Positions 19,588-57,586 of a DNA stretch of 64,000 bases are shown here, one piece after another; positions within the stretch are counted from its first letter, which is position 1, and each line of letters begins with the position of its first letter. The translations under genes and the position numbers were made by a program. Under the pieces are notes generated by a model, which was not told where the DNA came from, did no database searches, and saw nothing but the letters and a program-made list of their open reading frames with translations. This stretch comes from a virus (Duplodnaviria; Heunggongvirae; Uroviricota; Caudoviricetes). The stretch is taken from IMG/VR virus record IMGVR_UViG_3300021387_000076; one strand, given 5' to 3'.

Positions 19588-19618
19588 GGGGCCTGTCTTT
19601 TTTCGGACAGGCCCCTTT
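19588..19618 (+). terminator. Rho-independent terminator (GGGGCCTGTC...GACAGGCCCC plus TTTAATT), bidirectional in form
   Basis: 10 bp perfect GC-rich stem with A-run upstream and T-run downstream. Lies between the structural block and the integrase. Confidence 0.6.
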
Positions 19619-19635
19619 AATTATAGGAGATAAAT

Positions 19636-25274: not shown

Positions 25275-25448
25275 CTAAAACCAAATAAGGTTTTGCACTC
25301 TCCTGCTAGCTGGAACATTCGGATGCCATCCACGACTTGTTCTTACGACCTCGGAGCATGTAAGAAGCGCAGGCTTGTCCGATGAAGTTATCTGTTGGCT
25401 TCAGATATACCACTCGGACTCCCTTGGTACGCTGTACGGTCTGATACG

Positions 25449-25519
25449 CTGAGATGGCAGGAATTGAACCTGCAATAGGGGAGTCAAAGTCCCCTGTTAT
25501 TCCACTTAACTACACCTCA
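25449..25519 (-). tRNA. tRNA-Gln (anticodon UUG), 71 nt, CCA not encoded
   Basis: Hand-folded cloverleaf. Acceptor TGAGGTG/CATCTCA with U1:A72 and one G-U. D-arm GTTA-AGTGGAA-TAAC. Anticodon arm GGGGA-CTTTGAC-TCCCC with U33 and A37. T-arm GCAGG-TTCAATT-CCTGC. Confidence 0.8.
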
Positions 25520-38635: not shown

Positions 38636-39462
38636 ATTTTGTTAACGGGGAAAGTTAATATTTCACGAAGTCTTTCTTTATTAAACCACTTCATGAACCT
38701 TTTCTGCAGCCAACTGACTGACTCCCACTGCATAGACGTTCCATCTGGAAATACAAAGTCTTCGAATAAAGAATTAAAGTAATATTTATCGAAGTATGAA
38801 AAATTTAGGAACACTGATTGAGATCCACGGGCAGCGGCGGGCTGATTTAAACTATAAACCACCTGCTGGAAGTGATCGGTTATCACTGTATCAATGGTTG
38901 CATGTCTCGCAGAAAGGTCTACAACCTTATCTGCATGCAGATAATAGTCATTACCATATTCTTTACGCAGGAAATAGTCCATGTATGCAAGAAATTCAGG
39001 CGTTGCCACAGCTCCTTTGAGCTGTGCGGCAACGGCAAACACAAGGTTGATGAAGCCTCCGCAGAACGAGTCAAGGTTTTTCGGCGCAATAGTTGTACCG
39101 GAAAGCTTCGTCATCCCGTCAAACAGGAACGGATACAGCGTAATCGATGCACAATAAGGCACACCTGCGAACGGGAACGTGCTCTCGTCGTGTGTATAGA
39201 TCTCATGTCTTTCAAGCTGCTCAATATACAGGTCTGCTATTTCTTCATCATACAATTCAGTCAGCTTGTCGTGCATCATCAGTCTGTTGATCTTGATGTT
39301 ATCCTTCTTGTGTACTTCGGGTGCCATTGTTGCAATGTTCTTTCCTGAAACATTCGAATTGGAGTCAACCTCACTGCCTGTAGCAGTATTCTGTGCATCA
39401 ATAAACTTGTTTATAAAGTTGATATTTTTCCTGTGAACCGTGTACTTATTTGCAAGTGCCAT
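38626..39462 (-). CDS. nrdD: Anaerobic ribonucleoside-triphosphate reductase, N-terminal exon
   Basis: FPFAGVPYCASI, GGFINLVF, LNQPAAARGSQSVFLNFSYF and TFPV align with the T4 NrdD N-half. Likely start ATG at 39462 with SD GGTGA. The ORF runs into a stop just inside the intron. Confidence 0.7.
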   Translation of the reverse strand: MALANKYTVHRKNINFINKFIDAQNTATGSEVDSNSNVSGKNIATMAPEVHKKDNIKINRLMMHDKLTELYDEEIADLYIEQLERHEIYTHDESTFPFAGVPYCASITLYPFLFDGMTKLSGTTIAPKNLDSFCGGFINLVFAVAAQLKGAVATPEFLAYMDYFLRKEYGNDYYLHADKVVDLSARHATIDTVITDHFQQVVYSLNQPAAARGSQSVFLNFSYFDKYYFNSLFEDFVFPDGTSMQWESVSWLQKRFMKWFNKERLREILTFPVNKIAA

Positions 39463-39676
39463 GATCTTCACCGCTTTCGATAGAATTAATGTATCCGATA
39501 GCGTTCTGAAGATTCATAAGCGAGCCGTCAACGCTGAGTACTGGAACATGCGAAATACCAAGGTTTTTCATCTTATTCATATCCATGCATACTTCGTAGT
39601 CTATTTTTGCACTGTCAAGTCTTCTCTTAAGCATCTTGCACATCGGACAGGTTTCTGTTGAGTACAAAACTATCAT
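39446..39676 (-). CDS. nrdH: NrdH-like glutaredoxin
   Basis: YSTETCPMCKMLK thioredoxin-fold CxxC. 76 aa. SD AAGGA. Immediately upstream of nrdD. Confidence 0.5.
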   Translation of the reverse strand: MIVLYSTETCPMCKMLKRRLDSAKIDYEVCMDMNKMKNLGISHVPVLSVDGSLMNLQNAIGYINSIESGEDHGTCK

Positions 39677-40795: not shown

Positions 40796-41350
40796 TTACG
40801 CACCGGTAGAACCGAATCCGCCACTGCGTTCTGTAGTTACCTCGTCTTCTTCAGCCAAATAGTAGGGAAGGAAGATACCCTGAATGAATCTGTCGCCGGC
40901 TTCAAGATTAAGATCTATTGCCGATGCCTTAACAAGAATGTGTCCTTCATTTTTTGAATTATAATAATCCGAATCAATGATACCTGTAGTATTTGCAAGC
41001 GCGAAAGCATGTTTGAATCCAAGACTGGACCTAGGATAAAGCATAAGCACGTAACCGGGTTTAATATTGCATCTGATTCCAGTAGGAATAAGCTTATAGT
41101 ATTTTTCACTAAGATAAGTGTCTTCAGGAAGGTAAAAGTCATATCCAGCAGATCCATTTGTTGCCCTTGTTGGAAGTTTTATATTGTCATACACATAAGT
41201 GCACATCGTTAAAAATAAATTGTAATTCAAGAGCTCATCATTATACATTGAGTTAACCTCTTCTTCTGTTGGAAAATGATCTGTTTCATTCCAGCAGTCT
41301 TTACAAAACTGTTCGAAGCTTACTTTTTCAAACTTTGCAATTGCTTCCAT
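40796..41350 (-). CDS. dut: dUTP diphosphatase
   Basis: dUTPase motifs PRSSLGFKH, GIIDSDY, GDRFIQGIF and RSGGFGSTG. Confidence 0.8.
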   Translation of the reverse strand: MEAIAKFEKVSFEQFCKDCWNETDHFPTEEEVNSMYNDELLNYNLFLTMCTYVYDNIKLPTRATNGSAGYDFYLPEDTYLSEKYYKLIPTGIRCNIKPGYVLMLYPRSSLGFKHAFALANTTGIIDSDYYNSKNEGHILVKASAIDLNLEAGDRFIQGIFLPYYLAEEDEVTTERSGGFGSTGA

Positions 41351-41352
41351 AG

Positions 41353-41916
41353 TTAATCATCCTTTTCATCTTTTATGTAGTTGTTTTTTAGCAACCATGT
41401 CAAAGCTACTGCAGTAGCATCAGACTCGTCATCATTCTTGAACTCAATTCCGTTCACATATTTAAATACAGCAGCGGCAACGGCCTGCTTATCGGCGCGT
41501 CCGTTGCCGCTTACTTCCTTTTTTATTGTCGAAGGATAGAATTCTTCCCATTCTTTTTTTGCTTTTTGCCAAAGCACCAGATCCATCACGCCGACCACCT
41601 CTGATAAACCAGTTCGCGTCGAAGCTGCGTTCAACGGAGAATGGGATCCGTTGTTAACGACAGCTTCGCGCACAAAATAGCACTGTTTATCTAGGTCATC
41701 TTTTACAAAATTGTAGAAAGCCTCGGCTATCTCGTTAAGTTTCTGTCCTCTGGTCTTCTTTTTTGTCTTATTATCAACACTCATCACACTGACAGAGTTT
41801 ATAGAGTATTTTTCGGCTTCTTTTTTTACCTTAATACGGCAAAAGCCAGGCCTGTTCAGGCTTAAATCCGCTCCAAAAACTATGATACTGTCTTGAAATT
41901 CATCCATATTCGTCAC
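41353..41916 (-). CDS. RuvC-like Holliday junction resolvase (phage type)
   Basis: IIVFGADLSLNRPGF and DESDATAVAL acidic catalytic motifs. Confidence 0.6.
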   Translation of the reverse strand: MTNMDEFQDSIIVFGADLSLNRPGFCRIKVKKEAEKYSINSVSVMSVDNKTKKKTRGQKLNEIAEAFYNFVKDDLDKQCYFVREAVVNNGSHSPLNAASTRTGLSEVVGVMDLVLWQKAKKEWEEFYPSTIKKEVSGNGRADKQAVAAAVFKYVNGIEFKNDDESDATAVALTWLLKNNYIKDEKDD

Positions 41917-42254
41917 CCGTTTTCGCCAGCATCCTCCACTACTTCTTCATCGCTGCTTTCGTCCTCTTTTTCGTCGGGGAAGATGACTTTTTCAACTTTC
42001 TTCTGCAATTTTTTATCATATGCGGAGTGCGCATAGTAACCACTGGAAGTTGCAATAGCGATAGCAGATGAACTGGTAATAATATTAGTTGCTAAGGACA
42101 TTAATGTCTCTGTCACATTATTTTCGATGCTGCCCATCACCCAAATAAAGACGAGACATGTTCCGGCAATCAGAGACCACTGGGCTATTCCGAATACAGC
42201 AATCCTTTTGCTGTATCTCATGTATTTACCGAGAAGATCTTCAGGTTTCTGCAT
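41913..42254 (-). CDS. Putative holin (hydrophobic core, highly acidic C-terminal tail)
   Basis: Transmembrane segments plus DEKEDESSDEEVVED tail. Adjacent to the endolysin. Confidence 0.4.
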   Translation of the reverse strand: MQKPEDLLGKYMRYSKRIAVFGIAQWSLIAGTCLVFIWVMGSIENNVTETLMSLATNIITSSSAIAIATSSGYYAHSAYDKKLQKKVEKVIFPDEKEDESSDEEVVEDAGENG

Positions 42255-42582
42255 GGTTCCTGTCCTCTATTTTTGTGGGCAGTGCATCTATTTCTCTTTT
42301 AAGAAGTTTTACCGGACCGTTGCCGCCGAGAGCAAAATACTCATCAAACAATTCATCCATAATCTTTCTGTCATGCAGTGTAATGTAGCCGTTATCAAGG
42401 TGAAGCTTGGCCTCTGCTTTGATTTGCATGCGGAGATTGCCTCGCACGCCTCCGACAAGAGCGTTAACCTGCTTGTATAAGTTTTTGATCTGCCTCCAGA
42501 GTATTCCAAAAAGCGCGATGATAATGGCAAACAATTCCTGAGTCCAGTATTTCACGGCGATATCTATTATTTTGTCGATCAT
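42241..42582 (-). CDS. Small membrane protein (N-terminal transmembrane helix). Possible second holin or antiholin.
   Basis: Transmembrane helix and position in the lysis cassette. Confidence 0.35.
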   Translation of the reverse strand: MIDKIIDIAVKYWTQELFAIIIALFGILWRQIKNLYKQVNALVGGVRGNLRMQIKAEAKLHLDNGYITLHDRKIMDELFDEYFALGGNGPVKLLKREIDALPTKIEDRNHAET

Positions 42583-42585: not shown

Positions 42586-43947
42586 TTAACTCACCGCCTT
42601 GTAAACCGGCGAGCCGCCCGCTTTTTTAATTGCATCGAGTACTGTGTCGCGGATTGCTTCGTCTACAGTGACGGTGATCGAGTATTTTTGGTTCGGAATA
42701 TCTCCCAACATGACGAAATCAGCGTCTGCATATAAAGTTCTTCCTTCGTGTTTGACCTTGTACCATCCTTGACATTTATCAAGTACCTGAAGCTTTGTTC
42801 CACTTGACACACGCGTGATAATGGCGCCGCTTTTGTCAGGTTTGTTACGCAGGTTCAGCTTTCCGTTCTCTGTGCGTACAGTTCCGTACACAATATGTTC
42901 GTCTTCCTGACCTTCTTCGACATCATATATTGTGTATTTCAGTTTGCTTGCGTAGTCCCATGTGGAGATATTGCTTTCAACCACACCATATTGTGTACCC
43001 TTTGCTTCAATACACTTTCCATTGCCGATATACATACCGACATGCTTGAAGTTGCCAAGACCGTCTTTCACATATGCGTCAGGCATTTCTCCTGAGACGG
43101 CTTTCTTCCAACGGTACACAGCCATGCCTGGAACGAGTTTGATTTCGCCAATTTTACCTTTTTCTGTTGAGTACTTTCTATACATTGTATTGCTGCCGTG
43201 ATACATATAGCTTCCTGCCTGCTTATACCAGTAGGTAAAAGCACCGGAGCAGTCAACTTTGCCGTATTCAGCAGCATTCGCCACATATTTCCAGTTATTC
43301 TCTTTCATCATCTTAAACTTATCAATGAGATAACTGGCTTTAACGTTTTTGTACGCAGCCATATCGTCATCTCCTTTGATAAACCCAATATGTGTACCAG
43401 GATAATAAAAAGACAGGATCTGCTTGTAGTCATAGCCAAGGTCGGCGGCGTGCTTCGCGCCGACCTGACTCATACCTACGCCATGTCCCGTCTTCTTTCC
43501 GTGTGTTTCGGCAAAGTCCCATGGATCTTCCTGACTGATTAGCCATGCACGTTCTCCGCCCCATCTCTCTTTCGAAGAAATGGTTCTTCCTCCGTTCGAA
43601 GCAGAAAAAGAACACGGTGAACAAATATCTTTTCCGTAGTAGAGTATTTGTCCGGCAGTTTCTTTTGCGGCAAGATGTGCATTATTGTAACCAGTGAGGC
43701 GCGAGGCATTGAATGCCTGCGCCGTGGATCCACTGTCTGATATTACTTTGTTTTTCTGTACATACAAACAGGCAGTCGTCCTGGCGGCGACTGCCTGTGC
43801 TTTACATGCTTCTACCGGTGCGTTGCCTATTTCCGAGGCAACGACACCGGCAACATACTGTTCAAGCTCAACATCTACCATGTCTCCGATTGAGCAGTTA
43901 TAGTATAAAGCATTTTTATTCTTTGAGATCTTTACCTGAATGATCAT
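42586..43947 (-). CDS. Endolysin with SpoIID/LytB-like, NlpC/P60 cysteine peptidase and SH3b cell-wall-binding domains
   Basis: YVAGVVASEIGNAPVEACKAQAVAARTTA (SpoIID motif). VDCSGAFTYWY...HVGMYIGNG (NlpC/P60 Cys/His). C-terminal GTVRT..LNLRNKP...GWYKV fits SH3b. Confidence 0.75.
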   Translation of the reverse strand: MIIQVKISKNKNALYYNCSIGDMVDVELEQYVAGVVASEIGNAPVEACKAQAVAARTTACLYVQKNKVISDSGSTAQAFNASRLTGYNNAHLAAKETAGQILYYGKDICSPCSFSASNGGRTISSKERWGGERAWLISQEDPWDFAETHGKKTGHGVGMSQVGAKHAADLGYDYKQILSFYYPGTHIGFIKGDDDMAAYKNVKASYLIDKFKMMKENNWKYVANAAEYGKVDCSGAFTYWYKQAGSYMYHGSNTMYRKYSTEKGKIGEIKLVPGMAVYRWKKAVSGEMPDAYVKDGLGNFKHVGMYIGNGKCIEAKGTQYGVVESNISTWDYASKLKYTIYDVEEGQEDEHIVYGTVRTENGKLNLRNKPDKSGAIITRVSSGTKLQVLDKCQGWYKVKHEGRTLYADADFVMLGDIPNQKYSITVTVDEAIRDTVLDAIKKAGGSPVYKAVS

Positions 43948-44213
43948 TCTTCAGTGGCTGCAGTTGTAACAGGATGCACATAGCACTGACTCGTAATCAT
44001 TCTGCCATCAGACAGGAGCAGAGTTGCTGAGTGCTGAGGAAGCTTGGATACTGCGGCAGCGGCAAGCACTTCGTGATACTTTGCTTCTGCCTTGAGACTA
44101 GCCCATTCAGGGTCATCGTCGTATGCAAAATGGACAATGTGACCATATTCGCCGTTGTCGTATTTTTGGATTTCAAGAATATAGTATTGAGTAAACTGAT
44201 CCATAGGGGTCAC
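43944..44213 (-). CDS. Hypothetical protein (89 aa), start overlaps the endolysin as ATGA
   Basis: ORF only. Confidence 0.3.
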   Translation of the reverse strand: MTPMDQFTQYYILEIQKYDNGEYGHIVHFAYDDDPEWASLKAEAKYHEVLAAAAVSKLPQHSATLLLSDGRMITSQCYVHPVTTAATEE

Positions 44214-44226
44214 CCTTAATTTTTAA

Positions 44227-45993
44227 TTATGTTGCACTTGAGCTATATGATGGATATTGACCTCCACCATCGCAATACCACCATTTTCCATCAGCAGTTA
44301 ATATATATCTTTTATTATTAGCAGGAGAAAAGCCATGTCCAGTTATATAGGTAACATACATTCCAGAGCACACTGGAATAAAATTCCCAGTTGATAATGC
44401 TGCTGTTATTTCATTATAGGTTTTATTTAAAGTTTCAACATTATTTGATGTGGTAGAAGTTATGAACGTCGGATTAGTTATATTTTTTAACTGTGCTGCT
44501 GTTATTGTTGTTTCATCAGTTGTGCCAAGACCGAGCGTTAAACTGCCCGCAAGCTTTTCATTGCCGCTCCAATCAAGCGTGCGACCATTTTTGCGAGCGC
44601 TTTCTGCAGTGCCGATACCAATAATTTCTGCATAAGTATTATTGAGATCTTCGACGTTATATTTACCAGCAGCATGTTGATATTGGCCACTAGCTTTTGT
44701 GTAGCCTCCTTCTGCATGCGAATTATTACCAGCAGCAACAGTATAAGAACCTTCTGAATGAGAATAAAAACCGCTGGCAATAGTTGTAAAGCCTTCTGCA
44801 TGAGAAAAGCTGTTTTTAGCAAGCGTGCCGCAACCTTCTGCGTGAGAATTAACTCCATATGCAGAAGAAGAATTATATACATAACAGGAGTTCGAGTTGA
44901 GATTACCAAGAGAAGAAGAAACTGTAATTGTTTTGTTTGTAATATCTATAGATGTTATGATAGCTTTTGTACCAAACGACTGTATTATTTTTCCCAAATA
45001 ATAATCATATAATGCTGAACTGCTTGTATAAGTAGTACCAGAACCAGTCAAATAAATTCTAGGTGAACTATTATATCCACCTTCTGCATGGGAATAATTA
45101 CCATAAGCAACTGTATAATAACCTTCTGCATGAGAAGCGCTTCCATAGGTTATTGTGTAGCCTCCTTCTGCATGAGACGTACCGCCTTGACTTCTTGTGT
45201 AAGAACCTTCTGCATGAGAAACACCTCCGTCAGCGATTGTATTACTTCCTTCTGCGCGAGAATAATTTCCGATTGCTTTTGTATAATTTCCTTCTGCATG
45301 AGAACTGATACCAGTTGCTTGTGTATCTACGCCTTGCGCAACAGCATATTCTCCAGTTGCTATTATGGATGTATCGTTTTTAGCTTGTATTGAATATTCT
45401 CCTCCTCCTTTTACAAAAACGTTTGCTGGAAGTAAAGAAGAATCAATTTGTTTTACAGATGCTACATAACCAATAATAGTAACGTGGTCTCCGTTTGAAA
45501 TAAAAGTATCGTAAGCGCCCATATGTATTTGGTTACCACAAAGTCCAACACCATATTCAAGACCATTGTTTTCTGCGAAATCGTCCGAAAACCGTGGATT
45601 TCCAAAGTTTATTGAATTGTTAATTGGATTTGCATAAGTTATTTCAGAAGTTACATCATGGTTGTTTTCTCCGTTGATAATAAGTCTTATTTTGTTTACC
45701 GAATCAGGAGATACATTTTCTGGTAAAATTATTCTTGTATCAGACCATAGTATATTTCGACCATTTTCATCAGCAACCCAAGTTATAATTCCTTCATATA
45801 ACGTAATCCATTCGCTTTGTGTATATCCATATCCAGACTGTTCTTCATATTGTCCATCAATCGCTACGTACGCAGTGCCATCTTCTTCTTTTGTTTTCTT
45901 TGACAATTTATTGTCAATTAAATTTTTGTAATTAATTTCTTTCACAATACCAACCTCCTTTAATTGAAAGACCCTTGAACGAATACTAACCAA
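44227..45993 (-). CDS. Tail fiber protein with about 12 tandem SHAEG-type repeats (Hep_Hag/phage fibre repeat-like)
   Basis: Repeated xxSHAEGxYTxAxG units, mirrored by a DNA-level periodic repeat ccttctgcatgagaa. Confidence 0.55.
   Translation of the reverse strand: MVSIRSRVFQLKEVGIVKEINYKNLIDNKLSKKTKEEDGTAYVAIDGQYEEQSGYGYTQSEWITLYEGIITWVADENGRNILWSDTRIILPENVSPDSVNKIRLIINGENNHDVTSEITYANPINNSINFGNPRFSDDFAENNGLEYGVGLCGNQIHMGAYDTFISNGDHVTIIGYVASVKQIDSSLLPANVFVKGGGEYSIQAKNDTSIIATGEYAVAQGVDTQATGISSHAEGNYTKAIGNYSRAEGSNTIADGGVSHAEGSYTRSQGGTSHAEGGYTITYGSASHAEGYYTVAYGNYSHAEGGYNSSPRIYLTGSGTTYTSSSALYDYYLGKIIQSFGTKAIITSIDITNKTITVSSSLGNLNSNSCYVYNSSSAYGVNSHAEGCGTLAKNSFSHAEGFTTIASGFYSHSEGSYTVAAGNNSHAEGGYTKASGQYQHAAGKYNVEDLNNTYAEIIGIGTAESARKNGRTLDWSGNEKLAGSLTLGLGTTDETTITAAQLKNITNPTFITSTTSNNVETLNKTYNEITAALSTGNFIPVCSGMYVTYITGHGFSPANNKRYILTADGKWWYCDGGGQYPSYSSSAT
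44600..45330 (-). repeat. Coding tandem repeat of about 33-36 nt period (ccttctgcatgagaa...) inside the fiber gene
   Basis: Read from the sequence. Also produces the FCMR-repeat artefact ORFs on the + strand. Confidence 0.5.
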
Positions 45994-46730
45994 TACCTAG
46001 TATTACCCATAACTGTAGTATTCATTAACGCGGCGCGTCCCGCTTCTGTTGTTAATATGGAGGTTGTCGAATCGTCTGCTATATAAATTGGTATTTTGTC
46101 GCTGCCCATATCATAATAGTCTGTAATATCATATATAGATGCAATATCATTATCCCATGACTCATTTGTAATAATATCATAAAGACTTGTACCATTTGTG
46201 ACTTCAATTGTTTTTGAAGGGTCATCAGCATCTGGATCTTCATAAAACTTAACCGTAACTGTCTTTCCCGTCTTTTCCCAAACGGCATGTAAGTTTCTAT
46301 CTGATGTTATATTGTTTTGAGCATTAGCATTAACCGTTTCTGGACTTTCATCAGTTGCCCAGCCAAGGAATGTATAAGTAAAATATTCATCTTCTTTTGC
46401 AGCTGACATCTCATTCCACGTAGCATTCTGTCCGCTGGTCCATATCTCCTCAGTATGTAAAAGTTCTTCTCCATCGTAATAGTCAACGTCAAACCAGTTG
46501 TCGCCTTTCCTTACAATGAGAGAGCCTTCATCATCGATATATAATTTAAAATATTTATTACTGTTTGGTGTACATGACTTTATTTTTAAAAAGTCAAGTC
46601 CGTCCAGCGGATCTGTCCAGGTGCCATCATCTCTGAGAAAAGTATTTTCTTCATTTGTCAGAGCCGGAATGCGAGCATCTTTTAAATTATATATCGTACC
46701 ATTTACTTGAATCTTTTTTATATCAGCCAT
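45960..46730 (-). CDS. Fiber/adhesin-like protein with Listeria-Bacteroides (Flg_new) repeat-like segment
   Basis: YTFLGWATDE motif. N-terminus MADIKKIQVNGTIYNLKDARIP is shared with the neighbouring 62 aa ORF. Confidence 0.4.
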   Translation of the reverse strand: MADIKKIQVNGTIYNLKDARIPALTNEENTFLRDDGTWTDPLDGLDFLKIKSCTPNSNKYFKLYIDDEGSLIVRKGDNWFDVDYYDGEELLHTEEIWTSGQNATWNEMSAAKEDEYFTYTFLGWATDESPETVNANAQNNITSDRNLHAVWEKTGKTVTVKFYEDPDADDPSKTIEVTNGTSLYDIITNESWDNDIASIYDITDYYDMGSDKIPIYIADDSTTSILTTEAGRAALMNTTVMGNTRYWLVFVQGSFN

Positions 46731-46741
46731 ATGATCACACC

Positions 46742-46930
46742 TTATCCAGGAATAATAACAAGCAGATGATCATCGTTGTCGACAAATTGAACGCCTTCGT
46801 CAAAAGTTGGGACAGACCATTGTCTGTCCCCACGTAAAAACGTAGTTGTTGAGTTCGTCAAATTCGGAACTCTGTAGTCTTTGATGTCATAAGTTGTATT
46901 ATTCACCTTAATATGATAGATATCCGCCAT
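46742..46930 (-). pseudogene. 62 aa ORF homologous only to the N-terminus of the adjacent fiber gene. Likely a duplicated fiber N-terminal module or remnant.
   Basis: MADIYHIKVNNTTYDIKDYRVPNLTNSTTTFLRGD parallels MADIKKIQVNGTIYNLKDARIPALTNEENTFLRDD. Confidence 0.3.
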
Positions 46931-48093
46931 TAGGATACAGTAATGGTGGCAGAAGTACCGGTGAATGTCGGCTGAGAAACATCGCCGGTCGGAGTGCCAG
47001 ACACGCTGACGTTAACTTCATCACCAGTAAATGTGGGCTGAGATACGTTGCCTGTAGGAGTGAACTTGCCGGTAGAACTGAGAGCAGTGCCGGCGAACTT
47101 GAGGTTAACCCCAGTGCCGGAGAATGTCGGCTGAGAAACAGTACCTGCAGGAGTGCCAGATACGCTTATATTTCCTTCGCTGCCATTGAATTCAAGGTTG
47201 ACACCAGTACCCGTAAAGCTAGGCTGTGTGGCAGTTGCACTCTTAATGCCGGTCGCAATGACCTGACTTGCGAAAGTGGGAAGCGTGACAGCAGTAGGCC
47301 TGTTCGCAGTAAAGCTTCCTTCGGTCCACGAAAGAGTCAGCGTTTCGTTTTCGACTGTCGTGCTGAGAGTCGGCATGGTGCACGAAGCAGCAGAGCCAGC
47401 AGTCACAGCGCCGCCACCAGTCGTAGAGGAAGCAACATATTTGGTAGCAGTATTCGGCGTAACCGTGATCGTAGGTGTGCTGACTGTTCCAGCGGGAGTA
47501 TAGTTGGCAGTGCCCGTACCAACGGCGATGCCGCCAGCAGGAGTGAAGCTGCCGGTGGAAGTCAAAGCAGAACCACTGAATGTGGGCTGAGAGATCGTAC
47601 CGGCAGGAGTATAGTTTGCAGTGCCTGTACCGACACTGATGTTGCCTGCAGGAGTACCTGAAACAGTAATATTTCCTTCAGTGCCCGTGAAAGTAGGTTT
47701 GGAAACAGTACCTGTCGCTGTCACCGCACCTGTAGAAGTCATCGGATTGCCTGTAAACCCAGGTTTGGAAACAGTACCTGCAGGTTTATACGTTGTAGTA
47801 GCACTGTCTTTGTAGGCAAGTGCGCCAAGATCAGTTGTGTCACCGATCTCATGCCACTTGTTGTCAGTCGTGGAATAAATAAATTCCTTATTTCCACTGA
47901 TGACAATGCCGCCATTCACAGCATCTTTCTGTTCAGTTCCGATAGTAACCTTAGCGGTATTACCTCCGTCTGTGAGGGCCGTAGAAGTAACGCCCATAAA
48001 CGTGGTGCCGCCAGCAATAAGTTCTCGCGCTGTAGCGTCTTTCAGTTCGTATGTTATACCAGAAGGTAACGTAATTTTGCTGATTTCTGCCAT
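46930..48093 (-). CDS. Repetitive Thr/Gly/Ser-rich fiber protein (VSQPTFTG...VSGTPAG repeats)
   Basis: N-terminus MAEISKITLPSGITYELKD, followed by many short beta-rich repeats. Confidence 0.45.
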   Translation of the reverse strand: MAEISKITLPSGITYELKDATARELIAGGTTFMGVTSTALTDGGNTAKVTIGTEQKDAVNGGIVISGNKEFIYSTTDNKWHEIGDTTDLGALAYKDSATTTYKPAGTVSKPGFTGNPMTSTGAVTATGTVSKPTFTGTEGNITVSGTPAGNISVGTGTANYTPAGTISQPTFSGSALTSTGSFTPAGGIAVGTGTANYTPAGTVSTPTITVTPNTATKYVASSTTGGGAVTAGSAASCTMPTLSTTVENETLTLSWTEGSFTANRPTAVTLPTFASQVIATGIKSATATQPSFTGTGVNLEFNGSEGNISVSGTPAGTVSQPTFSGTGVNLKFAGTALSSTGKFTPTGNVSQPTFTGDEVNVSVSGTPTGDVSQPTFTGTSATITVS

Positions 48094-48114
48094 AGTAAAT
48101 CATCACCTTTAATT

Positions 48115-48480
48115 TTATGTAAATATAAGTATTTCTCCGTTTATGGTGCAATTGAGCTTTGCATTCCACGATGAACGTTCAGCCTCTGTAATGTGAATCT
48201 GTTCATTATTCACATGATCGTCGAGTCTTTCAGTAAGTCTCTGAACGTCTCTGTCTTTTATAAACGGAAGATCTGCAATCGGAGTACTTCCATCTCCAAT
48301 TTTTAAAGTATTGCTGTCAACATATAAACAGAATTCACCTTTTTTTGGTACATATTCCGGTTTATTTGCCCAGCCGCTTGATGTATTTTCAGATACGATG
48401 TCCGCCTTTTCCGAGAGCAATGCTTTTATCTTGCTCCATGTATAAAGCAGGCCATCGGAATCAAGAAATTTAGCACTCAT
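48115..48480 (-). CDS. Fiber paralog A (121 aa) with conserved N-terminus MSAKFLDSDGLLYTWSKIK
   Basis: N-terminal 30 aa nearly identical to the next gene. Confidence 0.4.
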   Translation of the reverse strand: MSAKFLDSDGLLYTWSKIKALLSEKADIVSENTSSGWANKPEYVPKKGEFCLYVDSNTLKIGDGSTPIADLPFIKDRDVQRLTERLDDHVNNEQIHITEAERSSWNAKLNCTINGEILIFT

Positions 48481-48513
48481 GATAACATCGCCTCGAAAAA
48501 TAGTTTGTTTTTA

Positions 48514-49080
48514 TCAGGTAGCAAATATTGCATCAATGTCAGAGTTCGTCATTGTGTCAACCGCAAACGAACCACCGAGTGCATCCCATGCTGTACCAGT
48601 CCATGCATAATTCATGCCGTCAGCTTCAACGTTGTACACGTCACCATTGGCAGCATTGGAAGGAAGCAGCGACATATTTGCAACGCTTCCCTTGTATACA
48701 TATGTATTAACGACATCAGACTTAAGCACATAAGAGGATGCAGAAGAGAATGCATCAAGCTTTGCTTTATCAGTGGAACTCATAAGACCCGCATCAGAAC
48801 TGGTTGCTTCTTCGTATTCAACAACATCAGCGCTCAAAACACCATCGCCGTTCACTGTAAGGTTTCTTCCGATGATGACTCCGCCAAGCGTACTGGTTGT
48901 AGCCGGCGTAAGCGTAAAGTCGCCTTCGCTTAGCGCCGCAAGTTTCTGCTTCTCCTCATTGGTATAGTCGTTTGTCGAAAGCTGCTTGCCTGCCACAGCA
49001 TCGACCTTACCGGAGAGTGCGGTCTTTATTTTGTTCCACACGTAAAGTAAACCATCCGAATCAAGAAATTTCTTGCTCAT
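48514..49080 (-). CDS. Fiber paralog B (188 aa) with conserved N-terminus MSKKFLDSDGLLYVWNKIK
   Basis: Shared N-terminus with paralog A, divergent C-terminus. Confidence 0.45.
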   Translation of the reverse strand: MSKKFLDSDGLLYVWNKIKTALSGKVDAVAGKQLSTNDYTNEEKQKLAALSEGDFTLTPATTSTLGGVIIGRNLTVNGDGVLSADVVEYEEATSSDAGLMSSTDKAKLDAFSSASSYVLKSDVVNTYVYKGSVANMSLLPSNAANGDVYNVEADGMNYAWTGTAWDALGGSFAVDTMTNSDIDAIFAT

Positions 49081-49361
49081 GTTAACATCGCCTCAATTTC
49101 TGAATTGCTTATAGTAGGAAGTCCTGCAGGATCAAAGGAACCAGAAGAAGAGGACGAATTTGCTTTTACTTCCTGCCAAACACAGTTTGTGTCCAGCACG
49201 TAGATCTTGCTTCTGTCCGCAGTATATGCAACAGAACCGCATGATAAATCTGAAACATCAAAAGAGTTTACATCCTCATTTTCTCCAAGCATAATTTCAT
49301 ACTGTCCGCTTGTAACAGGTCTTCCGTTTATTTTTATGACTTTCATAGGTATCACCACCAT
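49077..49361 (-). CDS. Hypothetical protein (94 aa)
   Basis: ORF only. Confidence 0.3.
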   Translation of the reverse strand: MVVIPMKVIKINGRPVTSGQYEIMLGENEDVNSFDVSDLSCGSVAYTADRSKIYVLDTNCVWQEVKANSSSSSGSFDPAGLPTISNSEIEAMLT

Positions 49362-49831
49362 AATTTATAACGAGGCTCTTCTTCGTCAAACAGCCGCCAT
49401 CTAAGCCAGTCGTCTAAATAGATAGCCGCCATAGATAAAGGCATCCATAGCAGTGTAAACTGCGGACAGATTTGCCCTAGTATATTCATCGGCAAATGCG
49501 AGTAATCCCATACATTAAGTCCAAGCCAGATGTTCAATATGCATCCAGATACAAACTCAACCATTGTAATTATCGCTGTACCGATAAATGTCTGCAGCCA
49601 GACAGGCACATCCCAGTCGATATATTCGTTGATGCCTCCGACTGCAAGAAATGCCGCACCGCCGACGAGCACCATGAGAGGGCTCGCCGGCTTGTGCGAA
49701 ACAAGTAATTTAAACAATAATTCACATAACATGTACGCAGAACCGCCAAACAAAAACAGCAGAATATTCTTACGCATTCTGCTGCTCCAGATAGTGCAGT
49801 ACATCAGACTGATATTCTGTTGGTATTTCAT
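49352..49831 (-). CDS. Polytopic membrane protein (159 aa) embedded in the fiber cluster
   Basis: At least 4 hydrophobic helices. Confidence 0.4.
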   Translation of the reverse strand: MKYQQNISLMYCTIWSSRMRKNILLFLFGGSAYMLCELLFKLLVSHKPASPLMVLVGGAAFLAVGGINEYIDWDVPVWLQTFIGTAIITMVEFVSGCILNIWLGLNVWDYSHLPMNILGQICPQFTLLWMPLSMAAIYLDDWLRWRLFDEEEPRYKLWW

Positions 49832-50498
49832 CGCCGTAATTGACCGCCAGTAGTTCGGCTTTTGTCTGCATTGACTTAATCCAGTTCTTCAAACTGTTGA
49901 AGTAAGTTGTGTGATATGTTTTAAATGCTGCAGCGGCCTGTAAGATACTGTTGATATCACTGATCGAATAATATGTGCATAGTTCTCCGTCTGCATGATA
50001 GGGGACAACTCCGTCTGCCTGAAAATTCTGCAGTGAAATAAGATTGATTTGATCTTCCAGTGTCAAACCGAAATGTTTTGTTGTGCCGTCAGACAGTGTG
50101 ACATCGACGCCGGCTTTTATTGCTTCATTGCATGCTCTCGACATTGCTTCGATGATAAAAGCTCGAAGCTCTTCAAGATTGACATCAGGATATACAGGTT
50201 CTTCGGCAGGCTCTTCATGAACAAGTTCATTTTCATTGTTCACTTCGCCGCCAAGATCCATGATCTTCTGTATTTCTTCGGCTTCTTCGTCGGAGATCTG
50301 AATTACAATTGTATCTTCAGCATACAGATCACTTTTTTCCATACCATTTATGTGGTATGCAATAGATCCATCAGATGAAAGAACTCCAGTCGCTTCTTCC
50401 GGTTCACATACAACAAGCATGTTGTTATACGGCATAAGCCAAAGAGGGTTATCAACAATATCAACGACCGTATTATCTTTGACTATTTTGTATTTCAT
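49770..50498 (-). CDS. Hypothetical protein (242 aa)
   Basis: ORF only. Confidence 0.4.
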   Translation of the reverse strand: MKYKIVKDNTVVDIVDNPLWLMPYNNMLVVCEPEEATGVLSSDGSIAYHINGMEKSDLYAEDTIVIQISDEEAEEIQKIMDLGGEVNNENELVHEEPAEEPVYPDVNLEELRAFIIEAMSRACNEAIKAGVDVTLSDGTTKHFGLTLEDQINLISLQNFQADGVVPYHADGELCTYYSISDINSILQAAAAFKTYHTTYFNSLKNWIKSMQTKAELLAVNYGDEIPTEYQSDVLHYLEQQNA

Positions 50499-50553
50499 AA
50501 TACGTCATTCCTTTAAAGCCAAGGCGGCTTTTGTGCGCCGCCTTGGCGTATAA

Positions 50554-53500
50554 TTAAATTGCAAAACCAAAACAAATATAGAGCAGCGTGTTGGCATACT
50601 GCGTATAGTTCGATCCATTGGAATATCCGTTGGACGTTACATAATGGAACTGGTTCGACCTGTAGTCGTAATCGCCATACGTATAGTTGCCTGGACTTCT
50701 CAGCCACCAGGAATTATTCGTATTTGTTCCGTATATATGCTTCGTGCGCGACGTCTGCGTGGTGAAGTAGGAGATCAGACCTTCGGACTCAATGGAATAG
50801 ATTGAGCCGTAGCTGCTGGAATTGCTTGTCACTTCGGAGAAAGAAGGTATAAACATATAATCGGAGCTTTCAACAGTCTGACTTGTTACACCGCTGCCGG
50901 GAAGAGACTTGACCTGTACCTGTGATATTACTGCTCTCCATGCACCGTTCATGCAGTAATACAGCCTGCTGTTCAGGAACTTTCGTACAAGCGATGCCTG
51001 CCATCCGTTCTGGTTTGTCGCAGTGGAATTCATATACAGACCTCTGGACAGAAGCTCAGAAGAATACAGGTTGATGCCGGCATAATTGTCGGATCCTGTC
51101 TTCTGATACATACGGAAGTTCGTTGAGCCAAGACCTGAAGCAATGAATGTATATGTTTCGAAAGGCCACATTGCGAGGCTTGAACACATATCATCACCGA
51201 GATCATCTTCCCAGTACTTCATCTTATAAATGGTACCGATAGCTTTATTGTTTGTATATCCATCATTGACATAATACTGACCGCCTACGGCAAGCTCAGA
51301 ATTGTTAATGATAGGTGCCTGTCTGCTAATCGTACCTTTCCGAATATCCATATTGTTTTCGTTTGTTATGCTGTGCGTATCGGACGAATAGATATACAGC
51401 GTCGGATCGCCCTTCTTGTGACGGATTACAACGACATCTCTCGTGGTGTATTCACTGGAGCTCGAAGTGTTCGTCTTCAGGTTGAACGTATCTCCGCAGT
51501 ACGCAATACGCGGTCCGTATGAGCTCTGGATCAGAGATATACCAGCCGTATCATTTGTACAGGAGACGAGAGTCGGAGTCGAATCACTGGGCTTAAGCTG
51601 ACCAAACTTGTAGTCAATCAGAAGCGTGAAGGACTTGTCCGAATCAAACAGTTTCTTTCCTGTTAAGGCGACATTGTTTCCGTCAAACTGTGTAGCGCTG
51701 TTATATAAGACAGTACTTGCGACATTCGTATAGTCGATATCATTTCCGAGCGTGATGTTGATTGTATCGCCGCTCTTGATTGTGCCGTAATATGTGGAGT
51801 TTGAATCAGCATTCTGACCACCGCTGCTTGCAAGTATGCCAGTCTTTGTCATTGCATAGATCTGCATCGGAGTCATATCAGCAAGATTTGTTCCGGCTGC
51901 AGGCACAGTACCTTCATACCATGTTGCGTATACGTCCATATCTTCGGTGACATTTGCAGTGTTTTTGTCCCATGCCTTGAACAGCCTGTAAACACCAATG
52001 GCATCTCCGCTTGTGTTTGTCGGCAAAGCTCCATTATATACTGCATTCTCACCATATCCGACTGTCTGTGTGCTTAACAGAGTAGATCCGTTATACCATC
52101 TGATGGTATAAGACTTGGTTTCCTGAGCATACACAGCTGTGTAGGATGCACCAGAGACAGTAACTCTTTCGAGTGCACGGTCCCAGCCCGTGAAAGTATA
52201 TACGGCTTCTGCAGTAGTCGGCCTTGTCGGAGTAGGAATAAGTCCAGTAGCAACAGGATCTACAGGGGTATCACCCTGAGAAACATACTGCGTGTTCAGG
52301 ACAGTGCCATTCCAGTCATAGAAGTTTACGGCAAACTCAGAAAGCGTGCTATCATATTCAATAGTCAGGTTCGGATATGCAGCCTTCAGCTGTTCATACA
52401 GAGAAGAACCGATATTCGACACATGAATTGTACCGGAGATCTCAGGATAAGCAGTCGTGCCCTGAGGCTTCTTGCCGTCAGCATCGACATACTTGCCCCT
52501 GGCTTTGTCTGTCAGTAGATCTTTGAGGATCTGCGTATCAGAGCCAATGTTCGCCGTGATGCCGACAAGCCTGATGTTCTCAAGCTGGTCAAGCTTATCC
52601 ATGAGAATACCCATCGCGTCAACGCCGGGAACATTTTCAATTATGAGAGTCTTCAGGTTATCAAGAGAGTCATAAGAGAAGTTACTGAGCTTGTTCATAT
52701 TTTTCATGACAAGAGAGACCGGCGAACCGAGTTCAAGCGTTTCAAGCGGAGAACCGTCTGCAAAGGTGAATCCTGTGATAGCAGGAGTGTTCTTCGCATA
52801 GATTTCACGGATGAACTTGTTATTTGAAAGGTTAATATTGCCACTCAGGTTGACACAGTTCTCAATGTTCAGAGATTCAAGCAGCCTATTGCCCGTAAGC
52901 GACAGGGAAGACAGGAGTGTATTTGTATACCCGGCTTCATGTGAACCTATAGTAATGCTCTTGAGTTTTGCAGCTCTGCTGAGGTCAATATTGTACGGGT
53001 AGAACTTGGATATATCTCCAAGCAGAACGATGTCAGACGCGCCATGAATGTACACAGTGTCAGTATTTCCAACATACGTGTTGTACTTGAGCGTTACGCT
53101 CTCGTTCGCGTCAAGCATATCGGAACTGACAGGTGTGCCTGAGTCACCATAAGAGACAGCCAGCTTCATGCGCTGCACAGGTGCAACCGTGATGGCAGTG
53201 TTTGCCATGGAGACCTGTCTGCCTGCACGGAAATAGATATAGTCGTTCTTGAACTGGTCACAGAAGTACTTGCTGTAAAGCATTCTGGAACGCTTATAGA
53301 TAAAGCTTTCTTTCTGTTCTGTTCTCGAACCTCTCTGCAGATACTTATACTTTGACGTATAAACAAGTGCCTCAGGAGTATTCGAAGAATAGTCATGATA
53401 ACCTTTTGTTACGGCATCCTGATACTTGTAATCCATATCCCTGTTGATGACTGCAGGACATACAAGCTCTGCATTCTCTGCGATATGGACTTTGTTCAGC

Positions 53501-56500
53501 ACGGTGTGATCCAGATATCCTGTGCCAGTGCCCGTATCCCTTGTAAGGGTACGTGCCCTGGCAGTGATCTCGGAAGCGAATGCTTCTTCAAACATCTTCC
53601 AGAAATAACTGTCATGACCGGAGAACATATACGTCCCATCCCCGCCGCCACGTTGGTAATCCCAGTCTGCGTAGTAAGGAATGCGGAGGAAGCCTACATT
53701 GTCCACGCCAAAGCAGGAGTCGAGATCATAGGGATCCGTGTACCAGATACCAAAGGAAGACTTATTCCAGTCGATAGCATCTACATTCAGACTGCCATCA
53801 GCTTTTCTGATCTGCGAAACAGATGTTGCGCCATTGGTAAACACAATGTTTTCTGCAGTAACATCTTTGCATGAAAGGAACAGGTTCTTAGCACGGTTAT
53901 CACACAGTGCTATCCATTCCATGAACAGGTAATACACGAGCGTATGTTCGAGATTGAAGTGCTTTTCAAATTCATTCTTGAAGATAGCTTTCTTTGCGGC
54001 CCTGGTTGTAGGATCAGTCGCTGCCCAGAAGTTGGCCCTCTGACACACCCATGTGTAAAGCACATGAATGTAATCATAGTTCGGTTCCAGTCCTGCATCT
54101 TCAAGGTCACCTTCATCAGGATAACATGACTCGAGTGCGTTCTTGACATTCAGGATAGAATTGCCGTCGTCATCTTCGATAGTCGAATAAAAAGCATCCG
54201 ACTTGAAGAAACAGATCGGGTTGGAGTTGTTCTTGTACTCCCACTTCTGCTGCTTGGTTACATTGCCGGAGTCGCCTTCGCTCTCAAGACCGAAACTCTT
54301 GGAGTTGCTCTTGTCGTTATTCAGACAGCCGTCGCCAGAGAATATGAATGCATCATCCGGGTAATTGGAGAAAACCTGACCGTTAACATATCTGTCAGCA
54401 GGCATATTAAAAAGCAGGCAGCGGAAACCATAAATAGTATTCTGCACAAGAGAGCCTGCTTCCTTATCATTGAAGAGCGTGTCAACAATGTTTGCATTGA
54501 AAGTATTTGCATGGTCTGTAGACATGTAGTCAATCTTGAAACAGAGAGTGGACTCGCCAATGGAAAGATCGTTTCCATTCTTATCTTTACCCTTGAGTGC
54601 ATACTTGACTTTTGATTTCTTTTCCTTGCCGTTTTCAATAATGATGGCCTGATTGTCATCTCTTGCGTACTTTGCAAGCGAAACCTTATAGTTCTTGCGG
54701 ATGTACTGCTGAGAAGATGTTCCCTGTACGTTTGTCTGGCAGGCAAACACGCCGTCATCATTCCTGTCAAGGAGCGAGAACTCAACAGTGTAGCCGCCTT
54801 TACCGTCAGGCTTTGTCAGCACTGCGCCACAGGGAAGCTTATTGCCTTTCCACTTTGACAGCTCACCTATGATAAGCAGACAGGGATACATATACAGGGC
54901 TTTCTTATAACTGATATCACGAAGAGAACTGCCGTCGAAGAGGACGTCGTTCTCTTCATTCATTGTAATACGATCCTTGATATCTGCAGGAGCATTCATA
55001 TAGTTCTGAAGAATGTCTTCGTTGGAAAGGTTTCTGTTGTACATGCGGACATCATAAAGCTTTGTAATGCAGCCATCGGATCCAAGCTCAACAGTAGCGT
55101 TTGAGTCATAGTCTGCGCCGGCATCATACAGGTAAGAGTTTGCATACTCGCCGTTGACATAAATGTTAACGCACTGAGTATTCTGCCCGCTTGCCTCGTC
55201 CACCGTTACAGGCTGGACGACAAAGCTGATACGCAGTCTTTTGTTATCCTTCAGGTATGCACACGGAATGGATTCCTCGTTGAGGATAAACCCATCGGCG
55301 TCAAGATCAAGGCTCTGACCTTTGGCTAAGAAGTAGCAAACCTGAGGTGTAATAACAAACTGCGGACCGTTCTCTGAGATACATCTCACGACACTCTTTG
55401 TTTCATCAGTCACATAATTCATCGACAGCTCGAACTCAATGGTTCGACCGGTCGATGTAACGTGAGCATTATTATTGCTGTCAAGCATGACGGTTTCTCC
55501 GTCCCTGTTCGTAAAGCTGGAATACAGGATCGGAATTTCAATGTTCATGCGTGCGTCGCCCGAAAGCGTAAGCACGCCCGTATCAACATAGCCGTCAGTG
55601 GACCAGTTAAAGCCGGTAAAGGAAGCGTAAATATTCTTCTTGCCGGTAGGACTGTCGTATTCATAGACATATGTGTCTCTGTCTGAACTGTCATTCGTTT
55701 TACCGGTCGGTCTGAAAGAGTACACAAGTCCAGTCGTTACCTGATTCACATCGTAATCATATGTTATTTCCTGTACGTTGAAGTTCATCATGGAAGTGCC
55801 GTTCATGTCGCTTGTGACAAGCCGGACAATCGCATCACCTGAGGCAGGATAGGATCCTTCTGAAAGTTCAAGCGTATTGATCACGTTATTTCTGATGTTA
55901 TTCAGCGTGCCGCTGTAATAAGTCGCCTCGAATACACCGTTTGCATTCAGGTTGCCGACAGCAATATTCAGTGTAGACATTCTTTCTTTGCCGGGAGAAT
56001 AAACCACGTATTTAACACGAAGCGTGTCTCCATATTTGATTGTGCTGTTCTCAAGATAAGCTCCAACCATTTCATAGTTGTCACCGGATCCGTTATCAAA
56101 CAGAATAGGGAAGATAACATGGTTGGATTCAGTTGCATCGGAAGCAACATAGTAAAGGTCTGCGATATGAGCGCCATATGCAAGGCCAGAAGTCTGCAGC
56201 GTGAGCTGTCTTACGACATTGTGTGCGGTTCCGATATCAGCAGACACAACAGGAGTCGGATTGTTATCAAGCCTGAGGTAAACAGTCTTGCCAATATTGT
56301 AACCGACAGGCGTAAACGAGATCGGAATATTGCCGGTATAAACAGATGTGCTGTCAAACGTAGTGGAGATACTCATCTCGACGCAGGAAATAGAGAACTC
56401 GAGAGGAGCCTCAAGGACTTTCTCTTCGCCATCCTGTGAAACAGTAGTAGACACAGTAATGCGTACCTTTGTTACAGCCCCGACAGTTAGATAATTCGAC

Positions 56501-57570: not shown

Positions 57571-57586
57571 TTGCAATTGCCCCTTT

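Follow-up and report, generated by a model that had tools for sequence, protein, structure and literature searches.

Two recurrent N-terminal modules and exchanged distal parts in a fibre gene cassette of an uncultured phage, probably of Clostridia

Two N-terminal modules recur in the fibre cassette

We analysed a cassette of fibre-like genes in a 64,000-nucleotide (nt) stretch of DNA from an uncultured tailed phage (IMG/VR record IMGVR_UViG_3300021387_000076); this stretch is called the window here, and all position numbers refer to it as a whole. Two short protein modules, A and B, stand at the N-termini of several cassette proteins and recur in other phages on proteins that differ downstream. 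The parts behind them have been exchanged between related genomes, and a gene that encodes module B by itself, as a mini-protein of 62 amino acids (aa), is under purifying selection. We think it probable that the cassette encodes a multi-component fibre or adhesin apparatus with N-terminal attachment modules and exchangeable distal parts; such an apparatus would be located on the virion, its proteins would dock as trimers and bind receptors, and it may influence host range. All open reading frames (ORFs) of the cassette lie on the minus strand in a tightly packed series, where a first-pass annotation of the sequence had placed them. The genes that carry the modules, and the terminal fibre gene that follows them, are:

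48514-49080, minus strand: 188-aa fibre protein; module A at the N-terminus (MSKKFLDSDGLLYVWNKIK), fibre motifs in the centre, conserved small beta domain at the C-terminus
48115-48480, minus strand: 121-aa protein with module A and a sub-threshold Mtd_N-like motif, GE..D....KIGDG
46930-48093, minus strand: 387-aa fibre shaft with PTFTG repeats and a module-B-like N-terminus (MAEISKITLPSGITYELKD), without a distinct C-terminal head
46742-46930, minus strand: 62-aa stand-alone module-B mini-protein (mini-1), whose start and the 387-aa stop overlap (TAATG)
45960-46730, minus strand: 256-aa chimeric protein, module B (residues 1 to ~45) plus a body
44227-45945, minus strand: 572-aa terminal fibre or adhesin with 14-aa SHAEG repeats like those of the YadA head, GTG start at 45945

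The 188- and 121-aa proteins share 21 of 30 N-terminal residues (expect value, E, 2e-11), with the module A consensus M-S-x-K-F-L-D-x-x-G-L-L-Y-x-W-x-K-I-K. The 62- and 256-aa proteins are identical at 25 of 50 residues (E 7e-14), with the module B consensus I-x-V-N-x-x-x-Y-x-[IL]-K-D followed by T-F-L-R-x-D-G-x-W-x-x-P, and the N-terminus of the 387-aa protein is a weaker module B (14/33, E 0.003). The likeness of the N-termini in the two gene pairs, which the first-pass annotation had pointed out, thus withstands pairwise alignment, and the shared sequences are not of low complexity. In DNA the shared stretches are identical at 58 of 90 positions (64%) for module A and 70 of 123 (57%) for module B. 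Their third codon positions are merely 40% identical, so the similarity is kept at the protein level, and with third positions near saturation recent duplication or gene conversion is ruled out as its source. The genes had been called paralogs; they are alike at their N-termini but are not recent local duplicates, since third positions have diverged and since both the module-A gene pair and the array of PTFTG fibre, mini and module-B protein are conserved arrangements in other phages. Judged from the codon positions, the shared N-termini are old, protein-constrained modules.

Adjacent gene pairs in which both proteins begin with module A are found in at least 12 other IMG/VR phage loci, with proteins of 56-394 aa, and genes like that for the 121-aa protein precede the PTFTG fibre in two related loci (L107 and L114; related loci and contigs are given by such handles throughout). 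In Pfam, PHROGs and NCBIfam, module A matches only phrog_24103, weakly, and the function of this family is unknown. The 188-aa protein has 990 detectable relatives, mostly on Clostridia-type metagenome contigs; within this family the N-terminus and a C-terminal domain of ~60 aa are conserved, and the middle varies in the number of fibre motifs. Conserved at both ends and variable in the middle, it is therefore not a swapped-tip receptor binder. The divergent C-termini reported earlier are real in that the modules stand on very different C-termini, but the 188-aa family conserves its own. In an AlphaFold2 (AF2) model of the 188-aa protein (mean predicted local distance difference test score, pLDDT, 74.6) residues 8-22 form a helix, and module A is predicted to be an amphipathic helix. 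The C-terminal domain is modelled with a pLDDT of about 90. A Foldseek search of the model gave nothing significant (best match, the collagen XV/XVIII trimerisation domain, E 0.22); this match is no more than a hint that the conserved C-terminal domain may be a trimerisation unit.

A 12-nt sequence, GAGGCGATGTTA, stands before both module-A genes (48481-48497 and 49081-49097, minus strand) and is followed by ATGAG and AAATTTCTTGATTC; the DNA identity between the two genes is highest at this gene-start junction. One copy of the 12 nt encodes the C-terminal EAML of an 89-aa protein encoded upstream, and the other is intergenic. The repeat seems to be left over from the duplication of a gene junction.

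A word-indexed search with module B returned nine proteins, so the module looked rare; a full HMMER scan of 1.84 billion representatives with a module-B profile gave 858 matches at E ≤1e-3. One class of these consists of giant fibre proteins with 5-22 internal FLRGDGxW copies. In the other class the whole module stands at residue 1, either of 191-499-aa proteins with unrelated C-termini or as stand-alone proteins of 62-68 aa, which form at least eight clusters at 50% identity. The first scan of GTDB with the profile found nothing, and scans of the 62- and 256-aa proteins against Pfam, PHROGs and NCBIfam gave no match over module B. Against solved structures the module-B profile found no true match (Strep-tag artefacts), and comparison of the 572- and 256-aa proteins with solved-structure sequences likewise gave nothing or Strep-tag artefacts. 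The AF2 model of the 62-aa protein is all-beta, with N- and C-terminal hairpins (the former at residues 4-9/12-15), at low confidence (pLDDT 57.8); from this low-confidence prediction module B would consist of a beta-hairpin and an FLRGDGxW part. The 387-aa shaft behind the weaker module B contains eight [ST]xP[TGS][FI][TS][GV] motifs at a spacing of 22-37 aa, with one gap of 84 aa, and has orthologues in L001, L098, L104-L107 and L114. A tblastn search with it against deposited phage genomes gave no match, the low-complexity filter being the probable cause.

The stand-alone mini-protein is conserved

The 62-aa gene has a ratio of nonsynonymous to synonymous substitution rates (dN/dS) of 0.19-0.25 in three comparisons, and its product is 79-92% identical between lineages whose neighbouring genes have a synonymous divergence (dS) of 0.8-1.3. 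Its length is kept in seven of eight variants; in the remaining one the stop codon is lost and the protein reads 70 aa. In L104-L107 a homologue of 65-66 aa lies directly after the PTFTG shaft gene, as it does in the window; behind it there is often another mini, of 66-68 aa, and next a protein whose N-terminus is module-B-like and whose body varies. The first-pass annotation had described the 62-aa protein as an N-terminal-only copy of a fibre. It does consist of module B only, but its dN/dS and the stand-alone minis in at least eight clusters mark it, on sequence grounds, as a conserved small protein and not as a truncated leftover. The gene has no Shine-Dalgarno sequence of its own, and the overlap of its start with the 387-aa stop suggests coupled translation. 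We also considered a programmed frameshift joining the two genes; by inspection, no slippery heptamer precedes TAATG, and translational coupling is the simpler explanation.

Downstream parts have been exchanged behind conserved N-termini

We compared the window with related genomes. The IMG/VR contig L001 (113 kb) is collinear with the window at 82% identity from 50574 to 46598, after which the window lacks 3.8 kb relative to L001; in the blastn alignment the junction at window position 46597/46598 corresponds to a jump from 13912 to 17727 in L001. Behind its 62-aa gene L001 encodes four more proteins: a mini of 66 aa, one with module B (361 aa), one of 795 aa and one of 225 aa whose N-terminus differs. 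The module B of the window's 256-aa protein is closest to the second mini (mini-2) of relatives and is fused in register to the body of the relatives' 'MAxTTGNDYDH' protein. By these alignments the 256-aa protein is a derived in-register fusion of ~45 N-terminal residues of the mini-2 type with the body of the 225-aa protein of L001. Its body has a weak match to the Listeria-Bacteroides repeat (PF09479, E 0.01, below cut-off). The junction is thus located as follows:

46553-46598: recombination junction inside module B of the 256-aa gene; two independent metagenome contigs also end here

These two contigs (L090 and L095) both end at the position that matches 46553 of the window, and four more (L096, L097, L100 and L101) stop at most a few hundred bases behind the mini gene, as is expected if several variants coexist in one sample. 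L098 has a third architecture, with proteins of 62, 66, 423, 452 and 246 aa, and a rumen Clostridiales prophage (L114) has a fourth, without minis. Furthermore, dS forms a mosaic along the cassette, with 0.14-0.27 for the 62-aa, 89-aa and membrane protein genes versus 0.8-1.3 for their neighbours.

The terminal fibre gene has been replaced in closer relatives. Four variants (L089, L091, L092 and L094) are ~93-96% identical to the window down to 45823, at about codon 41 of this gene, and then cease to align. In L089 the sequences align again, at 98%, from 44218, which lies 9 nt beyond the stop codon of the terminal fibre; thus the body of the SHAEG fibre is fully replaced between 45823 and 44218, with flanks that are 96-98% identical. 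In variants of this type the fibre is encoded by three ORFs, of 64 aa, 110 aa and, for the SHAEG protein, more than 710 aa (with a scaffold gap inside). L088 is 96.9% identical to the window overall; its cassette proteins are 97.5-100% identical and its terminal fibre 90.7%. The differences in this fibre are limited to residues 1-160, with the bin at nt 45500-45999 at 81% identity, and this patch is the part that other variants encode as a separate ORF of 107-110 aa. A second drop in identity in L088, to 82%, lies at 41000-41499.

The comparison with related genomes thus revealed both the downstream swapping (L089, L001 and L098) and the variation in SHAEG copy number that had been looked for as signs of a modular locus. 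The sequences support a modular, recombination-prone locus in which downstream parts are replaced behind conserved N-termini; the host-range role that the first-pass annotation had also assigned to it is conceivable.

The terminal fibre carries YadA-like repeats

The SHAEG gene likely starts at the GTG at 45945 (572 aa) and not at 45993. Its product contains ten S[HR][AS]EG motifs with an exact period of 14 aa, in blocks of six and four; with the eight PTFTG-type motifs of the shaft, both protein repeats reported earlier are confirmed. A DNA tandem repeat had been placed at 44600-45330. The 42-nt repeats are real, but they form two blocks and not one array:

45074-45346: imperfect tandem repeat block of 42 nt (14 codons) encoding SHAEG units, with a second, shorter block at 44702-44806

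The units are 62-86% identical to the reference copy, and Tandem Repeats Finder detects 45206-45326 alone (period 42). The copy number differs by lineage, with 10 motifs in the window, 20 in L001 and at least 18 in L089, and the gene is the most variable of the cassette; relatives split its equivalent into ORFs of 64, 107-110 and at least 487 aa. The strict 14-residue repeat with its small-residue core, SHAEG..T.A.G, resembles the YadA head repeats of trimeric autotransporter adhesins, and the pattern is that of the left-handed parallel beta-roll of an adhesin head. Unlike YadA-type adhesins, the protein scores below the cut-offs (PF05658, 22.8 bits versus 25; EmaA model NF033477, E 0.0016), stands in a phage context and has no autotransporter anchor, no C-terminal membrane anchor domain having been found in it.

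A giant fibre-like protein, a DUF4376-like protein and a membrane protein form a recurrent triad

Upstream of the module genes lie three further members of the same operon:

50554-57576, minus strand: 2340-aa giant fibre-like protein with C-terminal DUF6273, first gene of the late fibre operon
49770-50498, minus strand: 242-aa DUF4376-like protein (phrog_1348 'tail fiber protein', E 8.4e-12)
49352-49777, minus strand: 141-aa polytopic membrane protein (PF06541, phrog_20274), with an 8-nt overlap with the 3' end of the DUF4376-like gene

DUF6273 (PF19789) covers residues 2184-2323 of the giant protein (E 2.1e-14). The gene directly after it encodes the 242-aa protein, whose match to PF14301 (19.8 bits) is below the cut-off of 25; PF14301 is present in the genes at the same position in Hungatella prophage contexts (L109-L111). 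In Alteromonas phages V22 and A5, proteins with DUF4376 bear the annotation of tail fibre chaperones (PMC10579305), and by analogy the 242-aa protein is likely the chaperone of the giant DUF6273-tipped fibre.

The polytopic membrane protein noted in the first pass at 49352-49831 is real and has at least three to four hydrophobic segments, a PF06541 score of 46.8 bits (cut-off 25.9) and a match to phrog_20274 (E 1.6e-37). Its likely start is M19, which gives 141 aa and agrees with the gene calls in identical contigs; the longer ORF of 159 aa overlaps the upstream gene. All 120 homologues listed are flagged PF06541 (ABC_trans_CmpB), and homologues are ~50% identical, of the same size and found in Lachnospiraceae and other Clostridia. 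We sampled the gene context of PF06541 in two unrelated settings, a myovirus-type prophage of Hungatella hathewayi and a 90-kb phage (L112/L113). In both, the PF06541 gene directly follows a DUF4376 gene (with a 20-nt overlap in the Hungatella loci); in the 90-kb phage a 426-aa DUF6273 protein is encoded after a reverse transcriptase and is followed by the DUF4376 and PF06541 genes. Holin and lysin genes lie within ~1.4 kb downstream in most of the sampled loci. Because the same triad, with a four-helix PF06541 protein as its membrane member, recurs in unrelated contexts, the membrane protein is part of a conserved late module and not an insert, and the gene overlap together with the conservation of the pair beside holin and lysin genes suggests a function in late assembly or in lysis. 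Searching the literature for PF06541 yielded nothing on function. Nothing supports the superinfection-exclusion function proposed for the membrane protein in the first pass.

The reverse transcriptase (RVT_1) gene ahead of the DUF6273 protein was seen in L112/L113 and in no other locus, and it suggests that DUF6273 can be the target of a diversity-generating retroelement. For the cassette itself such a retroelement was rejected: Mtd_N scored 22.3 bits (cut-off 26.3), no template or variable repeat was found, and 43900-57600 contains no long direct repeat, the reverse transcriptase scan not having been extended over the rest of the window. In L109-L111 a tyrosine recombinase (Phage_integrase, 339 aa) is encoded between the fibre gene and the DUF4376-PF06541 pair, and this fibre segment with its recombinase could be an invertible or shuffling segment.

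A modular fibre apparatus and the alternatives to it

How could these parts work together? We propose that modules A and B are portable attachment or oligomerisation pieces, each of which would anchor its protein, presumably a trimer, to a partner shared within the fibre complex. This partner would be a branching hub or else the preceding segment, and for such docking we rely on analogy with the systems compared below. Structure prediction, by which the first-pass annotation had hoped to recognise a common baseplate-docking module, returned a helix for module A and a hairpin of low confidence for module B. The parts downstream of a module would supply shaft length and receptor binding, and the YadA-like SHAEG protein, the body of the 256-aa protein and the DUF6273 tip would be the distal binders of the host surface. 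Recombination inside or beside a module would swap whole distal parts, and would do so in register because the module junction is conserved. The 62-aa protein would be a small structural connector or a site-filling subunit, and the PF06541 membrane protein a conserved partner of the DUF4376-like chaperone. A more specific idea, which we regard as doubtful, is that the stand-alone 62-68-aa module-B proteins are cargo-free attachment modules that occupy hub sites or cap the fibre end. If this were true, the minis would set the number and kind of distal fibres per virion, and fusion or fission of mini and fibre body would be a regular route to rewiring the apparatus.

Several points weigh against an apparatus of this kind. 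The presence of the cassette proteins in the virion is an inference, as is the identity of the host, which is drawn from homologues in Clostridia. A hub or branching protein, including one of the FtbN or BppU type (see below), was not found. The cassette lies ~25 kb from the genes for the tape measure protein (TMP), Dit and Tal and on the opposite strand. The model of the 62-aa protein, at its pLDDT of 57.8, is too uncertain for a fold search, the 188-aa model had no significant fold match, and no solved structure matched module B by sequence. PF11133, the family of the phi29 head fibre gp8.5, is flagged on many homologues of the 188-aa protein, which leaves room for a location on the capsid, and with its conserved C-terminus this family member is not a swappable receptor binder. 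Finally, the variable patch of L088 is near the N-terminus of the terminal fibre and not at its tip.

The main rival is a serial assembly, in which the proteins are joined end to end in one articulated T4-like fibre, the 62-68-aa minis are joints or connectors, and the shared module is a repeated socket for the C-terminal end of the previous segment. We consider it unlikely, although it fits the fixed gene order and the fusions about as well. The window, L001, L098 and L104-L107 all keep the order PTFTG shaft, mini-1, (mini-2) and distal protein, the 387-aa shaft has no C-terminal head domain, and the overlap of its stop with the 62-aa start points to coupled translation. Moreover, ORFs that are separate in relatives are fused in the window (mini-2 and body into the 256-aa protein; the 64-aa, 110-aa and SHAEG ORFs into the 572-aa protein), which suggests physical adjacency of the products. 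However, the fusion in the 256-aa protein swapped one N-terminal module for another and did not join two complete units, and L114 does without any mini.

A further alternative, which we regard as improbable, is that part or all of the cassette encodes fibres of the capsid (head), decoration proteins or adhesins outside the virion. The PF11133 flags and the ~25 kb plus an integrase between the cassette and the TMP-Dit-Tal genes would fit such a location. In the window's own 188-aa protein, however, the PF11133 match is weak (15.1 bits versus a cut-off of 24.6; E 0.016) and covers profile positions 213-242 only, that is, a generic fibre motif. The PHROG matches of the 188-, 121- and 242-aa proteins are to tail and tail-fibre families, and tblastn gave matches with proteins annotated as tail fibres in Bacillus phage BCD7 and crAss-like phages. 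Tail-fibre genes of Firmicutes phages usually lie just before the lysis genes. The cassette has this position, and the order of 121-like gene, PTFTG fibre, further genes and lysin recurs in L114, at one prophage end in a Clostridiales metagenome-assembled genome. The chaperone annotation of DUF4376 proteins in Alteromonas phages also speaks for tail fibres.

Could the shared N-termini mainly be recombination or translation junctions, i.e. ribosome-binding sites and start-region linkers with no structural docking role? The DNA identity of the module-A genes peaks at the junction (GAGGCGATGTTA, ATGAG and AAATTTCTTGATTC), and the breakpoints 46597/46598 and 45823 are inside or beside modules. This explanation is nevertheless quite improbable: the amino acids are conserved although third positions are only 40% identical, indicating selection on the protein; the modules persist as conserved peptides between phages too distant for DNA alignment; and the stand-alone minis are under purifying selection. 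Least of all do we believe that the 62-aa ORF is a non-functional fibre remnant and the membrane protein a superinfection-exclusion or receptor-masking moron, for although some phages carry late-region membrane proteins that block superinfection, and although the 62-aa protein is short, lacks its own Shine-Dalgarno sequence and has a 70-aa stop-loss variant, its low dN/dS and kept length, its homologues in at least eight clusters and in the same gene position, and the overlap of the membrane gene with a DUF4376 gene, in a pair conserved in both sampled contexts and mostly beside holin and lysin genes, make this very improbable.

Comparison with known fibre systems

Other phages are well known to combine a conserved N-terminal anchor with distal parts that can be exchanged, and branched or segmented fibres and chaperones encoded beside them are equally well established. 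In Klebsiella phage KP32, a conserved N-terminal peptide of the second receptor-binding protein (RBP2) docks on the branching domain of RBP1 (PMC13352976). The cassette resembles the branched RBPs of KP32, K11 and KP34 in that a short conserved N-terminal peptide stands on proteins with different, exchangeable distal parts and in that several fibre or spike genes lie side by side. It differs in having two different modules, five to six module-bearing genes and stand-alone module-only proteins, and in belonging to a large siphovirus-type phage with a probably Gram-positive Clostridia host. No branching domain was found in the cassette, and homology to the KP32, K11 or KP34 peptide is not expected between phages so far apart.

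The TP901-1-type BppU/BppL baseplate is related to the side fibre of monocin, a Listeria F-type tailocin. In monocin (PDB 9j1l), FtbO and FtbP have N-terminal beta-hairpin latches that resemble each other and bind one FtbN treble hook (PMC11830787). Here, too, two different fibre proteins are encoded next to each other, and the system is a siphovirus-like one from Firmicutes. The 188-aa protein shares an AT..G.MS..DK.KLD motif with FtbO, a marginal match (E 0.027) that concerns the stalk and not the latch, and Foldseek comparison of its model with 9j1l gave an E of 8.6. Unlike the monocin latch, module A is predicted to be helical and not a hairpin, and the hairpin of module B is of low confidence. 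The T4 long tail fibre consists of the consecutive products gp34-gp35-gp36-gp37 with small connectors, and a dedicated chaperone is encoded nearby. No homology to it was detected here, and the T4 segments do not have a common N-terminal module.

In Alteromonas phages V22, A5 and P24, a module of tail fibre and DUF4376 chaperone moves between unrelated phages (PMC10579305). As in that system, a DUF4376-type protein is encoded right after a fibre gene in the window. Unlike in that system as described, the DUF4376 match is below the Pfam threshold, the gene follows a 2340-aa DUF6273-tipped protein, and it is paired with a PF06541 membrane protein gene.

New here are modules A and B, the recurrent stand-alone module-B minis and the DUF6273-DUF4376-PF06541 triad in Clostridia phages. 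Since the principle of an anchor with an exchangeable part is already established, the conceptual gain is modest. Almost nothing is known, on the other hand, about host recognition by phages of gut and rumen Clostridia. The natural exchange junctions are given here to the base, the variant set spans the range from strain to lineage level and shows which parts are swapped, and both offer a starting point for the prediction of host range from metagenomes and for fibre engineering in this group of phages.

Genome context

The best reading of the region 43944-57576 (minus strand) is one late operon directly upstream of the genes for an endolysin and candidate holins. The genes in and behind this operon that remain to be listed are:

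49077-49346, minus strand: 89-aa small protein (ORF; also among the gene calls in identical contigs)
43944-44204, minus strand: small protein of 86 aa, encoded between the last fibre gene and the endolysin gene
42586-43947, minus strand: endolysin with SpoIID, NlpC/P60 and SH3 domain matches
41913-42582, minus strand: two candidate holins of 113 aa each, of which the second has a hydrophobic segment

The 86-aa gene has a dN/dS of 0.08 in comparison with L001, and in L114 a similar gene lies after the fibre genes, one ORF upstream of the lysin genes. The C-terminal 13 residues of the 89-aa protein weakly resemble the C-terminal helix of the 188-aa protein (hhalign, residues 76-88, E 0.0045, probability 7.8%); with so few residues aligned at this probability, we rejected the idea that the 89-aa protein is a C-terminal-only copy of the 188-aa protein.

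The genome is that of an uncultured siphovirus-type phage of ~113 kb with an integrase; metagenome contigs of up to about 112.8 kb match the window at 100% identity. A blastn search of the cassette against 50,697 deposited phage genomes gave no DNA match. Given the homologues in Clostridia, a bacterium of this class from gut or rumen is the probable host. The plus strand of the window encodes a tape-measure-like protein, a Dit-like protein, a 1654-aa minor tail protein and the integrase:

5-12994, plus strand: 4329-aa tape-measure-like ORF (phrog_4211, E 1.3e-34), directly upstream of the Dit-like gene

With the usual scaling of ~0.15 nm per residue, 4329 aa would correspond to a tail length of several hundred nm. 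The Dit- and Tal-like tail genes (13054-20802, plus strand) run straight into the integrase gene. About 25 kb separate them from the cassette and the lysis genes, which are encoded on the other strand, past the gene for the alpha subunit of DNA polymerase III; this last gene is on the minus strand upstream of the 2340-aa gene. Such a separation of tail and fibre genes is unusual.

The gene for the anaerobic ribonucleotide reductase NrdD (36502-39471, minus strand) looks split, with an ORF for an HNH or intron-type endonuclease at 37696-38616. NrdD is a single ORF of 628 aa in L088 and is present as separate NRDD pieces of 278 and 332 aa in L087, which is identical to the window; this suggests insertion of a mobile intron or homing endonuclease. 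A lone tRNA-Gln gene (anticodon TTG; 25448-25519, minus strand) lies among small early genes at about 20.8-31.5 kb.

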